A stretch of DNA of 4,415 nt from the IMG/VR virus record IMGVR_UViG_2695420658_000007, one strand, 5' to 3'. Under the pieces are notes generated by a model. It was not told where the DNA came from and did not search any database. It was given only the letters and a program-made list of their open reading frames with translations. Below, piece after piece: positions 1 to 4,415 of the stretch (the first letter of the stretch is position 1; every line of letters starts with the position of its first letter). This DNA is from a virus (lineage: Duplodnaviria > Heunggongvirae > Uroviricota > Caudoviricetes). A program made the translations under genes and the position numbers.

Positions 1-61
1 CAAACTATCTAATTTTTGCGTCGCTTTTTGTGTTAGGTCGCTGTAACTGATAAACCCTACG

Positions 62-265
62 TTAGCACCTACAATTAACACTAAGAACACTTATGAAGGA
101 AATGAATAGAAATATAGATGTTGATGTTTTTAGATATTTTTCAGGAAATAATGGGTGAGCAATAATGTATACAAGATTAAGTAGTATATAAATTGCTACC
201 GGAATGAAAATCATGCTCCAGTGTGTATCTTTTTTGGGAGGGATTGGCTGCAAATAATCAGACAC
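62..265 (-). CDS. hypothetical small membrane protein (two hydrophobic segments); start codon uncertain
   Basis: Minus-strand ORF in the six-frame track (67 aa). Reading the bases, the codon at 265..263 is GTG, and the first in-frame ATG is at 214..212 (giving 50 aa). Two hydrophobic stretches (WSMIFIPVAIYILLNLVYIIAHPLF and SIFLFISFISVLSV). Weak Shine-Dalgarno for either start. Same strand and AT-rich composition as the upstream ORF 348..767. No homolog recognised. Confidence 0.3.
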   Translation of the reverse strand: MSDYLQPIPPKKDTHWSMIFIPVAIYILLNLVYIIAHPLFPEKYLKTSTSIFLFISFISVLSVNCRC

Positions 266-347
266 CGTTTTTCCATCAGTTTCAAGAAGAATTACTAGAT
301 CTCTTACTTCACCACTGACTTGAGTGCATCCTTAGTAGTAATGTTAA

Positions 348-767
348 TCATTTTTTCCCTCCAAATACGATGCCCTCTACGTCTTTGGAAGCTTTTTGTG
401 ATGACCACTCCTCTGAATCAGGTGATTTAATTAAAAATATTGTATCTCCATCAAAAATCGTATTTGTTCCGTAAAAATTCACATTTGATAGATCACCACC
501 AAAAACCCTCTGCCCACTCGAGGTAATTGCCTCACCTAATTTAGTAAAATTACCANNNNNNNNNNNNNNNNNNNNNNNNNNNNNNNNNNNNNNNNNNNNN
601 NNNNNNNNNNNNNNNNNNNNNNNNNNNNNNNNNNTGGCTTTAATTACACCACCACCATCCTTAGAGTTAAATAATTGAATGTCCACTCCAGCAGTTGGTT
701 GTATATATTTTGAAAGCTCTTTCTTGAACTTGTTAATATATTTATCTTTGTTTTCTTTGTTGGTCAT
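348..767 (-). CDS. hypothetical protein, AT-rich prophage cargo gene (no recognisable family); reading frame passes through an N-run
   Basis: ATG at 767..765, TGA at 350..348. The flanks on both sides of the 89-nt N-run are open in the same frame (44 codons before, 66 after). About 30% G+C by hand count over 61..240, versus 58% over 1081..1140 in the Nin genes. The visible protein is Gly/Asn/Ser/Lys-rich with no signal peptide. No strong SD upstream. Confidence 0.5.
   Translation of the reverse strand: MTNKENKDKYINKFKKELSKYIQPTAGVDIQLFNSKDGGGVIKAXXXXXXXXXXXXXXXXXXXXXXXXXXXGNFTKLGEAITSSGQRVFGGDLSNVNFYGTNTIFDGDTIFLIKSPDSEEWSSQKASKDVEGIVFGGKK
546..634. other. run of undetermined bases (N x 89) inside the ORF 348..767
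   Basis: Literal n characters in the sequence; content unknown. Not a multiple of 3, so frame continuity of the surrounding ORF depends on the run being true length. Confidence 0.99.
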
Positions 768-854
768 TGGTTAGATCCATAGTTCTGGCTGTGATTAGGT
801 GAAAGTATACAAGGTTTTTAAAGCGAAGATCACTGTTTTGGCTTCAAGATAGTT

Positions 855-939: not shown

Positions 940-1035
940 ATGCGACCACAATCTGAACTCATCACCTTGTCACAGATGCAGAAATGCACCTGCGATTTTC
1001 TGCATTCTGCGGTTTCCGTTAGGGAGGCCGTATGA
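940..1035 (+). CDS. ylcH: ylcH-like micro-ORF (31 aa), translationally coupled to ninB
   Basis: ATG at 940 preceded by AAGGGG (927..932) with a 7-nt spacer. Translates to MRPQSELITLSQMQKCTCDFLHSAVSVREAV. Its TGA (1033..1035) overlaps the ninB ATG (1032..1034) as ATGA. A small ORF sits at this position upstream of ybcN in DLP12 (recalled, not verified here). Below the length cutoff of the supplied ORF track. Confidence 0.4.
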   Translation: MRPQSELITLSQMQKCTCDFLHSAVSVREAV

Positions 1036-1487
1036 CTCTGCCAGTAGACGGCATCAAACTCCATCGCGGTAACTTCGCGGCCATCGGCCAGCAGATTCAG
1101 CCATTGCTGGATGCCGGGCAATGCTTACGCCTGCAGGTTAAGCCGTGGCGCGAGAAGCGCAGCCTGTCGCAGAACGCGCTCAGCCACATGTGGTACACGG
1201 AGATCAGCGAATATCTCATCGCCCGCGGCAAGACCTTCGCTACGCCTGAGTGGGTCAAAGACGCGATGAAGCACACCTATCTCGGCTACGAAAGCAAAGA
1301 CCGTGTAGATGTCGTGTCCGGCGAGGTCACCACCGTCCAATCCCTCCGCCATACGTCAGAGCTGGAAACCGGCGAGATGTACATCTTCCTGTGCAAAGTC
1401 GAAGCCTGGGCGATGAATATCGGCTGCCACCTGACAATTCCGCAGAGCTGTGAATACCAGCAGCTGCGCGATAAGCAGGAGGCGTAA
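1032..1487 (+). CDS. ninB: NinB/Orf-family recombination mediator (YbcN-like, 151 aa)
   Basis: ORF with SD AGGGAGG (1021..1027) 4 nt before the ATG. The protein contains the RSLSQNALSHMWYTEIS segment, which resembles the RSLDQN region of lambda Orf/NinB as I recall it. Same size and operon position as ybcN in DLP12. Confidence 0.88.
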   Translation: MTLPVDGIKLHRGNFAAIGQQIQPLLDAGQCLRLQVKPWREKRSLSQNALSHMWYTEISEYLIARGKTFATPEWVKDAMKHTYLGYESKDRVDVVSGEVTTVQSLRHTSELETGEMYIFLCKVEAWAMNIGCHLTIPQSCEYQQLRDKQEA

Positions 1488-1657
1488 TGGCTACACCGCT
1501 TATTCGTGTCATGAACGGGCACATCTACAGAGTATCAAATCGTCGTAAGCGTAAGCCTGAGCTGAAGCCATCCGAAATACCAACACTGCTCGGATATACC
1601 GCTAGCCTGGTTGATAAAAAATGGTTGCGACTGGCAGCAAGGAGGAATCATGGCTGA
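1487..1657 (+). CDS. ninE: NinE-family protein (56 aa)
   Basis: ATG at 1487 overlaps the ninB TAA (TAATG). Translated by hand to [56 protein letters not shown], stop TGA at 1655..1657. Matches the basic NinE of DLP12-type prophages in size and position. Absent from the ORF track because it is under 60 aa. Confidence 0.8.
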   Translation: MATPLIRVMNGHIYRVSNRRKRKPELKPSEIPTLLGYTASLVDKKWLRLAARRNHG

Positions 1658-1940
1658 TTTGAGAAAAGCAGCGCGTGGTCGGGAATGCCAGGTAAGAATC
1701 CCTGGCGTATGTAATGGCAATCCTGAAACGTCAGTACTGGCACATATCCGGCTGGCTGGATTGTGCGGTACCGGTATCAAACCGCCAGACCTGATTGCCA
1801 CCATTGCATGTTCTGCCTGTCACGACGAAATCGACCGCCGCACATATTTTGTCGATGCTGAGTATGCAAAAGAATGCGCGCTGGAAGGTATGGCGAGAAC
1901 GCAGGTTATCTGGCTGAAAGAGGGGGTTATTAAGGCGTGA
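1650..1940 (+). CDS. ybcO: YbcO, DUF1364 Cys/His-rich putative zinc-binding nuclease (96 aa)
   Basis: ATG at 1650 preceded by AAGGAGG (1639..1645). Overlaps the ninE 3' end by 8 nt. The protein has the motifs [11 protein letters not shown] and ACSACHDE. The track ORF begins at an upstream in-frame TTG (1611) inside ninE, which I do not accept as the start. Confidence 0.85.
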
Positions 1941-2299
1941 ATACCTACAGCATCACATTACCCTGGCCTCCGAGCAATAACCGCTATTACCGCCATAATC
2001 GCGGGCGCACACACATCAGCGCAGAAGGGCAGGCATACCGCGATAACGTCACCCGAATCATTAAAAACGCAATGCTGGATATCGGCCTGGCTATGCCAGT
2101 GAAAATCCGTATTGAGTGCCACATGCCGGATCGCCGTCGCCGTGACCTGGATAATCTGCAAAAAGCCGCTTTTGACGCACTCACCAAAGCAGGTTTCTGG
2201 CTGGATGATGCTCAGGTCGTTGATTACCGCGTTGTGAAGATGCCTGTTACCAAAGGTGGGAGGCTGGAACTGACCATCACCGAAATGGGGAATGAATGA
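1937..2299 (+). CDS. rusA: RusA Holliday-junction resolvase (120 aa)
   Basis: GTG start at 1937 overlaps the ybcO TGA (GTGA). The protein [20 protein letters not shown]...[34 protein letters not shown] carries the acidic catalytic cluster characteristic of RusA. 120 aa, as in DLP12 RusA. Confidence 0.92.
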
Positions 2300-2436
2300 T
2301 GTTTGAGTTTTATATGGCAGAACTTCTTCGCCACCGCTGGGGGCATCTGCGCTTATATCGTTTCCCCGGTTCTGTTTTGACCGATTACCGAATACTGAAG
2401 AATTACGCCAAAACCCTGACAGGAGCAGGAGTATGA
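2296..2436 (+). CDS. ylcG: YlcG small prophage protein (46 aa)
   Basis: ATG at 2296 overlaps the rusA TGA (ATGA). GGGG (2287..2290) lies upstream. Hand translation [46 protein letters not shown], stop at 2434..2436. Below the ORF-track cutoff. Confidence 0.6.
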
Positions 2437-2521
2437 AGTCAGAGATAACAATCAACTAATACTGTTTTGTTGATTTTTGCTTGTAATTGGCGTTCTGGTC
2501 TGATTTTTGTGGAGTAAGTTG

Positions 2522-2905
2522 ATGCGTGATATTCAGATGGTTCTTGAGCGTTGGGGAGCGTGGGCGGCTAATAATCATGAAGATGTGACCTGGTCGTCCA
2601 TTGCCGCCGGTTTTAAGGGATTAATTACTTCAAAAGTAAAATCTCGCCCGCAATGTTGTGACGATGACGCGATGATTATTTGCGGGTGCATGGCCCGTCT
2701 GAAAAAGAACAACAGCGATTTGCACGATTTATTAGTAGATTATTATGTAGTCGGTATGACATTCATGTCACTGGCAGGTAAGCATTGCTGCTCTGATGGT
2801 TATATCGGGAAAAGGTTACAGAAGGCTGAGGGCATAATTGAAGGGATGTTAATGGCATTAGATATCCGGTTAGAGATGGATATCGTTGTTAATAACTCTA
2901 ATTAA
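2522..2905 (+). CDS. quuD: Q-family late-gene antiterminator (QuuD-like, 127 aa)
   Basis: ATG at 2522 with GGAG (2511..2514) 7 nt upstream. The protein [31 protein letters not shown]... has several Cys residues, consistent with a Q-type zinc-binding antiterminator. Sits at the end of the Nin operon as Q does in lambdoid phages. The track ORF starts at an upstream TTG (2507). Confidence 0.85.
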
Positions 2906-2957: not shown

Positions 2958-3100
2958 AAAAATAAAGGNNNNNNNNNNNNNNNNNNNNNNNNNNNNNNNN
3001 NNNNNNNNNNNNNNNNNNNNNNNNNNNNNNNNNNNNNNNNNNNNNNNNNNNNNNNNNNNNNNNNNNNNNNNNNNNNNNNNNNNNNNNNNNNNNNNNNNNN
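2931..3100 (-). ncRNA. ipeX: possible IpeX-like porin-regulating sRNA; body lies almost entirely in the N-run, only the terminator is visible
   Basis: Established knowledge recalled from memory: in DLP12 a roughly 167-nt sRNA (IpeX) is encoded just 3' of nmpC and ends at the nmpC terminator. Here the terminator (2930..2957) and the porin are present in the right arrangement. The 5' coordinate is extrapolated, not observed. Confidence 0.25.
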
Positions 3101-3271
3101 NNNNNNNNNNNNNNNNNNNNNNNNNNNNNNNNNNNNNNNNNNNNNNNNNNNNNNNNNNNNNNNNNNNNNNNNNNNNNNNNNNNNNNNNNNNNNNNNNNNN
3201 NNNNNNNNNNNNNNNNNNNNNNNNNNNNNNNNNNNNNNNNNNNNNNNNNNNNNNNNNNNNNNNNNNNNNNN
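2969..3271. other. run of undetermined bases (N x 303) covering the porin 3' end and the porin-to-terminator interval
   Basis: Literal n characters; content unknown. Confidence 0.99.
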
Positions 3272-4257
3272 AGTAATAGGTTGCACCTACATCAATATAT
3301 TCAACCAGGTCCTGATCACCCCACGCACCCAAGTCTTTTCCTTTAGATTGCAGGTAAGCNNNNNNNNNNNNNNNNNNNNNNNNNNNNNNNNNNNNNNNNN
3401 NNNNNNNNNTCGAACTGATATTGTGCAACTACTTCGAAGTTTTGTGCTTTGTTGGCAATATGGTTATTACCAAAAACAGTCATGTTCTGGGTTTCAGAAT
3501 AGGTGGTAGCCAGATAGATGTTGTTCGCATCATATTTCAGACCAGCTGCCCATACTTCAGCATTTTGACCAGATGCATTCAGGCTGTTGTTACCGTAGAT
3601 AACCTGATTATTAGTGCGGTCAGATTTAGCATAGGTTGCACCTACACCGAATCCTTCATACTCATAAGTAGTGGAGAAACCGAAACCATCACCATTAGCT
3701 TCAGTTACGTCAGTGCGGTCATTTTTACCCTGATACTGAGCAGCAAAGTTCAGACCATCAACCAGACCAAAGAAGTCGTTGTTACGATAAGTTGCAACAC
3801 CAGTGGTGCGACCAGTCATGAACACATCTGTTTGAGTCCAAGTGTCACCACCGAATTCTGGCAGGACGTCAGTCCACGCACCGATGTCGTATGCTACACC
3901 GTAGTTACGGCCGTAATCGATGGAGCCGTAGTCACCGAATTTCAGGCCAGCGAAGGCAAGACGGGTTTTATCTTTGGAGGAACCTTGAGATTCAGCGCGG
4001 TTGCCTTTGAATTCATATTCCCACTGACCGAAACCAGTCAGTTGATCGTTGATTTGGGTTTCACCTTTGAAGCCAAGACGGGCATAAGTAGTATCACCAT
4101 CATCTGCATCATTAGAGGAGAAGTAGTGCTTAGCATTAACTTTCCCGTACAGATCCAGCTTGTTACTGTCTTTATTATAAATTTCAGCTGCCTGAGCAGA
4201 CATCGCCATCAGTACTGATGCAGCTACAGCAGAAATTGCCACTGTTAATTTTTTCAT
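3147..4257 (-). CDS. nmpC: NmpC/Lc/OmpD-type general porin (prophage-encoded OmpC/OmpF/PhoE family); 3' end inferred inside the N-run
   Basis: ATG at 4257..4255 with AAGGG 6 to 7 nt upstream. Signal peptide [23 protein letters not shown] followed by AEIYNKD. 282 continuous codons down to ...[10 protein letters not shown] at 3412. Beyond the 50-nt N-run the fragment [29 protein letters not shown] (3359..3273) is typical porin C-terminal sequence. About 40 more residues are expected, so the stop is placed near 3147 by length extrapolation (visible support ends at 3272). The frame differs across the 3360..3409 gap (see findings). Confidence 0.85.
3360..3409. other. run of undetermined bases (N x 50) inside the porin gene
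   Basis: Literal n characters. The round length of 50 suggests a conventional scaffold-gap placeholder rather than a true-length mask. Confidence 0.99.
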
Positions 4258-4415
4258 CGTGAGCCCTTTTATTTGAACTATTATTTAAAAATGATGTCAC
4301 TGCACTACAAATATTCATCCAATCAATGAGATTATTTCAAGATGTAAGTTTTAGTTTCTCATTTAAATTGTGAAGTAGATCCCTGGATTTGCCCCTATAT
4401 TTCCAGACACCTGTT

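Follow-up and report, generated by a model that had tools for sequence, protein, structure and literature searches.

Phage lambda carries rexA and rexB as a two-gene prophage operon outside the lytic programme, in which the gene for a cytoplasmic protein is followed by that for a small polytopic inner-membrane protein. RexB has four transmembrane (TM) helices. Morons, a concept linked to Hendrix and Juhala and exemplified by HK97 gp15, bor and lom, are extra DNA that separates genes found side by side in related phages, and a soluble component paired with a small membrane effector is the logic of defence systems such as Kiwa (KwaA/KwaB), TM-effector CBASS, Thoeris and retrons. Here we describe a prophage locus comparable to all three, consisting of two genes, g1 and g2, for a soluble protein and a membrane protein with three predicted TM helices. 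We read the copy studied here as a decayed form of a rare and uncharacterised two-gene accessory (moron-type) operon with a candidate exclusion or abortive-infection (Abi) function, a tentative reading that we favour while putting it somewhat short of an even chance.

The window, by which we mean the whole stretch of 4,415 nt analysed (IMG/VR virus record IMGVR_UViG_2695420658_000007), corresponds to the nin region of a lambdoid prophage and contains ybcN/ninB (1032-1487), ninE, ybcO, rusA, ylcG and quuD, as well as a prophage porin gene on the minus strand. The NinB-like gene ybcN (plus strand) is the first gene of the nin operon and forms the right-hand border of a variable slot. The best annotated match to the window was found in E. 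coli strain A7, whose prophage adjoins tRNA-Arg and intD, i.e. the DLP12 site. The order at the slot in lambda is P-ren-NinB, and three other E. coli prophages carry unrelated cargo there (ren-emrE-ybcK; ren and a YajG-family lipoprotein gene; a wHTH regulator, IS30 and ead-like genes). In all IMG/VR loci that extend far enough, the g1/g2 pair is encoded on the opposite strand, with the replication gene P on one side and ybcN/ninE on the other, and the flanking immunity and replication modules differ among these loci. With 33.8% G+C, the block 62..767 differs from the nin operon (1032..2905, 50.1%) and from ybcN (57.7%); the hand counts given in the preliminary description (55 of 180 over 61..240 and 35 of 60 over 1081..1140) proved exact. 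Its proposal of horizontally acquired cargo, inserted on the opposite strand into a variable slot that precedes ybcN/ninB, is likewise supported, other prophages having other content in this slot. Slot position and base composition therefore argue for a moron-type insertion. The cassette was present in just 46 of 5426 complete E. coli genomes, each time as a single chromosomal copy.

Two features next to these landmarks were also recorded. A 31-aa ORF (940-1035, plus strand) lies directly 5′ of ybcN and overlaps its start, and the annotation of other genomes has a hypothetical protein (~33 aa) at this position, where the preliminary description had placed 'ylcH'. The A7 prophage (L001 6809-8457, outside the window) carries a DUF4411 and ImmA/IrrE metallopeptidase gene pair adjoining a cI-like repressor, which is a candidate for another accessory or defence pair.

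Both ORFs originally noted in the block (348..767 and 62..265, minus strand, 82 nt apart) do exist in the window. The upstream one, g1, had been listed as 139 aa with a masked segment at 546..634; the run of N in fact covers 556..634 (79 N). We compared the window with L009, an IMG/VR locus 100% identical to it over 2,977 unmasked bases, and found that all three N-runs exceed the real sequence (556-634, 79 versus 37; 2969-3271, 303 versus 250; 3360-3409, 50 versus 22), so that the lengths of ORFs crossing them are untrustworthy. The first run stands for 37 bases that encode, in identical relatives, part of ...TLNRSGKRKSSIA..., an excess of 42 nt. Because of this excess, and because g1 has 125 aa in all intact homologues, the length of 139 aa is a mask artefact. 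Other reading frames across N-runs, that of the porin gene included, look broken or artificially extended. Between the window (~4270-4384) and L009 there were 12 mismatches and one gap, all of them non-coding and upstream of the porin start, and the unmasked porin coding sequence was identical; this cluster suggests either a recombination breakpoint or fast-evolving regulatory DNA.

Outside the mask, g1 appears intact in the window. The protein of the E. coli cassette (WP_000182282.1) matches PHROG 18061 over its full length (E = 9e-85; annotated as 'unknown function') and contains no hydrophobic segment, its maximum 19-residue hydropathy being 0.43. A weak AF2 model (pLDDT 55) displays the order alpha-beta-beta-alpha-beta-beta-alpha, on the basis of which an alpha/beta fold is predicted. 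No recognisable enzymatic or nucleotide-signalling domain was detected in g1, and profile searches against PDB sequences with two alignments returned only chance-level matches to Spc97 and FtsA. A by-eye impression of a Roadblock/LC7-like look was dropped.

The downstream ORF turned out to be something else than it had seemed. Alignment to A7 and to PHROG 16940 identified positions 1..351 of the minus strand as a g2 pseudogene, the remnant of a membrane protein that has 142 aa when intact (WP_000608370.1); its final 9 nt, stop codon included, fall just outside the window. Two lesions separate the window from all 46 E. coli copies of the cassette. The first is a 1-bp deletion at 326..327 (GCC to GC on the plus strand), which shifts the g2 frame after codon 8 and leaves MINITTKD-ALKSVVK followed by a stop (ORF 304..351). 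It is common to the window and L009, and the 113-aa fragment expected from this deletion alone is annotated in Shigella sonnei on 100 contigs (exact look-up among ~15 billion proteins), so we regard it as a natural lesion of the S. sonnei lineage. The second is a 68-bp deletion with its junction at 91..92, which takes out the end of TM2, the following loop and part of TM3 and leads the frame into ...FISVLSVNCRC and a stop. This deletion was seen in the window alone: none of the 46 E. coli copies has it, nor does any of the 17 IMG/VR loci in which this part of g2 is present, and L009 lacks it too. An independent frameshift in TM1 of g2 was observed in another IMG/VR locus (L002).

The 67-aa ORF (62..265) thus lies wholly within g2: its GTG start is codon 30 of the intact gene, and it consists of TM1 and a truncated TM2 followed by out-of-frame residues. 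The two hydrophobic segments ascribed to it are real (residues 18-36 and 45-63), but they belong to a three-TM protein and not to an independent two-TM one. A pair of a soluble and a membrane protein is indeed the ancestral layout, except that the genes overlap in intact copies and are not 82 nt apart. Since g2 is both frameshifted and deleted here, this copy would be unable to act as the working pair proposed for it, and it is probably non-functional as a pair. In its ancestral form the locus belongs to the module, and the window still retains g1, the g2 start, its Shine-Dalgarno sequence and the overlap.

These results bear on the original picture, in which the window would encode a functional Abi, Sie or toxin pair made up of a complete soluble protein of 139 aa and a separate two-TM protein of 67 aa. 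Both ORFs are open, the small one does hold two hydrophobic stretches, and in S. sonnei the longer fragment of 113 aa is annotated with this GTG as its start. Against this, the length of the first protein is an artefact, and the second begins inside a conserved 142-aa gene and owes its end to the 68-bp deletion. None of the exact 67-aa, 50-aa and 34-aa products of the window occurs among ~15 billion proteins. In the 44 intact E. coli copies, as in all distant homologues, the partner has three TM helices and its gene begins right at the end of g1 or overlaps it. We consider this explanation very improbable. The case also illustrates how ORF calls over N-runs or in decaying prophages can make a pseudogene fragment look like a small membrane protein.

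Intact g2 matches PHROG 16940 over its full length (E = 2e-96; 'unknown function'). Its N-terminal head (~44 aa) is acidic and is followed by three TM helices (47-65, 79-97 and 106-124) and a short hydrophilic tail. Its AF2 model shows three long helices (pLDDT 72). A basic HKHK loop follows TM2, and the conservation of this basic loop weakly suggests an N-in/C-out topology. The g2 ATG (351-349) overlaps the g1 stop codon (ATGA), and a GGAGGG Shine-Dalgarno sequence (357..362, minus strand) lies within the final part of g1, with 5 nt between it and this ATG; together they imply that the two genes are translationally coupled. Abutting or overlapping g1/g2 gene pairs are also kept in distant homologues. 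Pairwise comparison of the E. coli, Enterobacter-type and divergent cassettes gave dN/dS values of 0.07-0.08 for g1 and 0.07-0.19 for g2 (dS up to ~2), by which estimates both genes are shown to be under strong purifying selection.

A reading of the two frames as chance ORFs in an AT-rich spacer is refuted by the conservation data. The DNA is AT-rich, with few stop-free frames arising by chance and only on some strands, and no canonical promoter was found; but dN/dS values this low with saturated synonymous change, a g2 start with a strong Shine-Dalgarno sequence overlapping the g1 stop, and homologues from at least five phyla that align over the full length (23-45% identity) and likewise have this partner leave such a reading next to no weight.

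A -10-like hexamer, TATACT (804..809, minus strand), is located ~37 nt upstream of the g1 ATG and represents a candidate promoter element; a cassette that is just 66-76% identical has TATGAT at the same position. The promoter reading of TATACT is weak, since a consensus scan of the minus strand of the window found no full sigma-70 promoter. Downstream of g2, hairpins were present, none of them with the T-run of a terminator.

The comparison set comprised 46 E. coli copies and 18 IMG/VR prophage loci. The E. coli copies are all 803 bp long, with identities of 99.8% or more, and 44 of them are intact; carriers include the uropathogenic (UPEC) strains 536 and F11 and probiotic strains. Close homologues of g1 and g2 are confined to Escherichia, Shigella, Enterobacter and Klebsiella. 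The cassette was absent from INPHARED phages (DNA and tblastn searches) and from PLSDB plasmids (tblastn), and a first contig scan with the enterobacterial profile gave no match. The copies that are disrupted have lost either gene: g2 is broken and g1 intact in the window, in L009 and in L002, g2 is also broken in the S. sonnei lineage, and g1 is broken and g2 intact in E. coli CV839-06 (L052, IS1 insertion) and in Es_ST80_L1_NDM_10_2017 (L053, 1-bp deletion). Decay thus strikes either gene and leaves no mark of g2 as the dangerous partner. The idea of a preferential decay of g2, as a sign of an effector or toxin, was withdrawn on account of the latter two genomes.

A toxin-antitoxin (addiction) system, with g2 as a membrane-damaging toxin and g1 as its antitoxin that together stabilise the carrier element, has to be weighed against the same genomes. 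The operon is small and tightly coupled and is found on prophages, on a mobilisable plasmid (L033) and in an integrative and conjugative element (ICE, L037), and of the two genes it is g2 that is disrupted in L002, S. sonnei and the window. The gene order, with the soluble protein encoded upstream, is compatible with both readings. However, two E. coli genomes keep g2 without a working g1, which under a classical system would be expected to be lethal unless polarity silences g2, and a simple toxin-antitoxin reading is weakened by their existence. Neither protein shows similarity to known toxin-antitoxin families. We therefore rate this alternative as improbable, with a small but real share of our confidence.

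Beyond the enterobacteria, an HMMER profile search of 1.84 billion cluster representatives (E ≤ 1e-3) retrieved 109 distant g1 proteins or clusters, most of them 120-135 aa long and matching end to end. The family conserves Y10, G39, F84-x-G86-T87, K100, W107 and D115, with the signature YINNFRR...GTN...LIKD..EW, and the pair spans from Enterobacteriaceae to Bacteroidota, Myxococcota and Acidobacteriota. Counting only g1 homologues with readable downstream DNA, we found a g2-like partner directly after g1 in 17 of 17 IMG/VR loci that extend far enough, and such a partner in 8 of 8 metagenome look-ups, in 9 of 9 readable species-representative loci and in an additional IMG/VR contig (L054). The nine species representatives comprise Deltaproteobacteria, Acidiferrales, Myxococcales, a betaproteobacterium, 'Ca. 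Aadella', Bacteroides, a Bacteroidetes MAG, Mariniflexile and Flavobacterium. The distant partners share a head motif, G..E(E/V)(V/I)+(D/N)(L/F)...G(L)...Y(I/L)..P (in a shorter form G..EV+DL..G...Y..P), three hydrophobic segments (in a few homologues only two of them exceed the hydropathy threshold) and a basic loop that follows TM2.

One family member departs from this arrangement. In a protein of 447 aa (P0105; L031 246-1589, Logan SRR22012404), g1-like residues 1-120 are fused to an HNH endonuclease domain (PF01844, E = 1.3e-12), followed by a C-terminal part of ~200 aa without a known domain; the fusion is represented by a single metagenomic protein on two short contigs, and L031 does not extend far enough to hold neighbouring genes. 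Two other unusual sequences were seen in the search. The 127-aa protein P0013, on an ENA contig of 1145 bp, joins 79 N-terminal pentapeptide-repeat residues, in frame at 'DLSNVNF', to the C-terminal 48 residues of g1, and could be an assembly chimera or a product of recombination at a short shared motif. On L035, a 545-aa protein (258-1895) is encoded just upstream of a g1 homologue that bears an N-terminal extension; by eye it contains GHKL-ATPase-like N-box and G1-box motifs (ELISNSGAKE, DNGCGMN), and it gave no Pfam or PADLOC match.

Distant pairs were found on phage-like contigs, one on the mobilisable plasmid mentioned above, and one in the cargo region of the ICE together with Peptidase_C14 and DUF4238 genes. 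In a deltaproteobacterial MAG the pair (L042 2008-4150) is positioned directly upstream of brxA-brxB, the start of a BREX locus. In the uncultured Bacteroides sp. UMGS1534 it is flanked by the genes for Mod (666 aa) and for Res (1015 aa) within a type III restriction-modification (R-M) operon (L047 6004-6781), and an HKD+Snf2 helicase protein is encoded upstream; the mod-res interval is an unusual site for an inserted pair. A locus with an Xre-MbcA/ParS antitoxin nearby (L020) is also beside smc-zipA-ligA, and two others adjoin valS (L043, by eye) and a CLC channel gene (L050). The defence neighbourhood amounts to a handful of loci, taken without a statistical control, alongside others next to ordinary chromosomal genes, and is suggestive.

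The loci next to smc-zipA-ligA, valS and the CLC channel gene speak for a non-defence accessory role, in which the pair would be a membrane module for lysogenic conversion (envelope or stress physiology, control of transport, or receptor masking without Abi) or a helper in the life cycle of the element. The lack of any PADLOC match points the same way, as does non-defence cargo such as emrE in the same slot of other prophages. On the other hand, the patchy cross-phylum spread on mobile elements, the position inside a type III R-M operon and beside BREX genes, and the HNH fusion fit conflict systems better than physiology genes. Such a role is rather unlikely in our judgement, and it retains substantially more weight than toxin-antitoxin function.

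Under the reading that we prefer, the operon would occupy the variable slot between P and ybcN/ninB in lambdoid prophages at the DLP12 site, antisense to the early-right operon. g1 would work in the cytoplasm as a sensor or regulator docked on the head of g2, which would lie on the same side of the membrane, and the effector in the membrane would be g2, so that the pair may work as a phage-exclusion or Abi module with Rex-like logic. Because the cassette is antisense to PR transcription, it could be expressed in the lysogen and damped by that transcription during the prophage's own lytic growth. A broader proposal takes g1/g2 as the founding case of an unrecognised cross-phylum system against phages or other mobile elements, in which a g1 sensor controls a three-TM effector or, rarely, an HNH nuclease, and which is carried by lambdoid prophages of UPEC 536 and F11 and is decaying in S. 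sonnei; this is possible, although we lean towards doubting it. If a defence or exclusion function is correct, the cassette would be a compact membrane-acting module of two proteins in ~800 bp, with no homology to catalogued systems, present in uropathogenic E. coli (536, F11), probiotic strains and distant phyla, and the P-ninB slot could be mined as a cargo hotspot like those of P2 and P4.

Searches of Pfam, NCBIfam and PADLOC with the window ORFs, the intact proteins and ten distant g2 homologues gave no match above threshold, and PADLOC-DB v2.0.0 contained no family matching g1 or g2 at E ≤ 1. With Pfam, NCBIfam and PDB sequences all lacking a match to g1, whose homology to a phage structural or housekeeping family would have counted against the preliminary description, neither protein is, by these profile comparisons, part of such a family. 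The accessions and PHROG identifiers of g1 and g2 did not occur in the literature searched, the scope of which leaves out Brenes & Laub (2025, Cell Host Microbe 33:1004), and the identifiers were likewise absent from the DefensePredictor supplements. The module is thus missing from the curated family and defence databases queried and from the literature searched. PHROG holds the two proteins, as phrog_18061 and phrog_16940, which are the same proteins as g1 and g2, and membership adds no biology.

How the cassette stands to the described systems can be stated for each in turn. It shares with morons an aberrant base composition (33.8% against 50% G+C), an independent orientation and an occurrence in less than 1% of E. 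coli genomes; however, no convincing promoter or terminator, the defining elements of a moron, was found, and its proteins are unrelated to any described moron product. Like Kiwa, TM-effector CBASS, Thoeris and retrons it combines a soluble component with a small membrane partner, and it occurs on mobile elements beside BREX and R-M genes, yet no PADLOC model matches g1 or g2. As a sign of modularity, an HNH nuclease fused to the g1 domain can replace the membrane partner. Homology to the Rex proteins was rejected (hhalign probability 0.03% for g1 against RexA and 1.7% for g2 against RexB). RexB and g2 are nearly equal in size (144 and 142 aa), whereas RexA has 279 aa against the 125 aa of g1, and the rexAB genes are situated in the immunity region, whereas the g1/g2 cassette occupies the slot between P and ninB.
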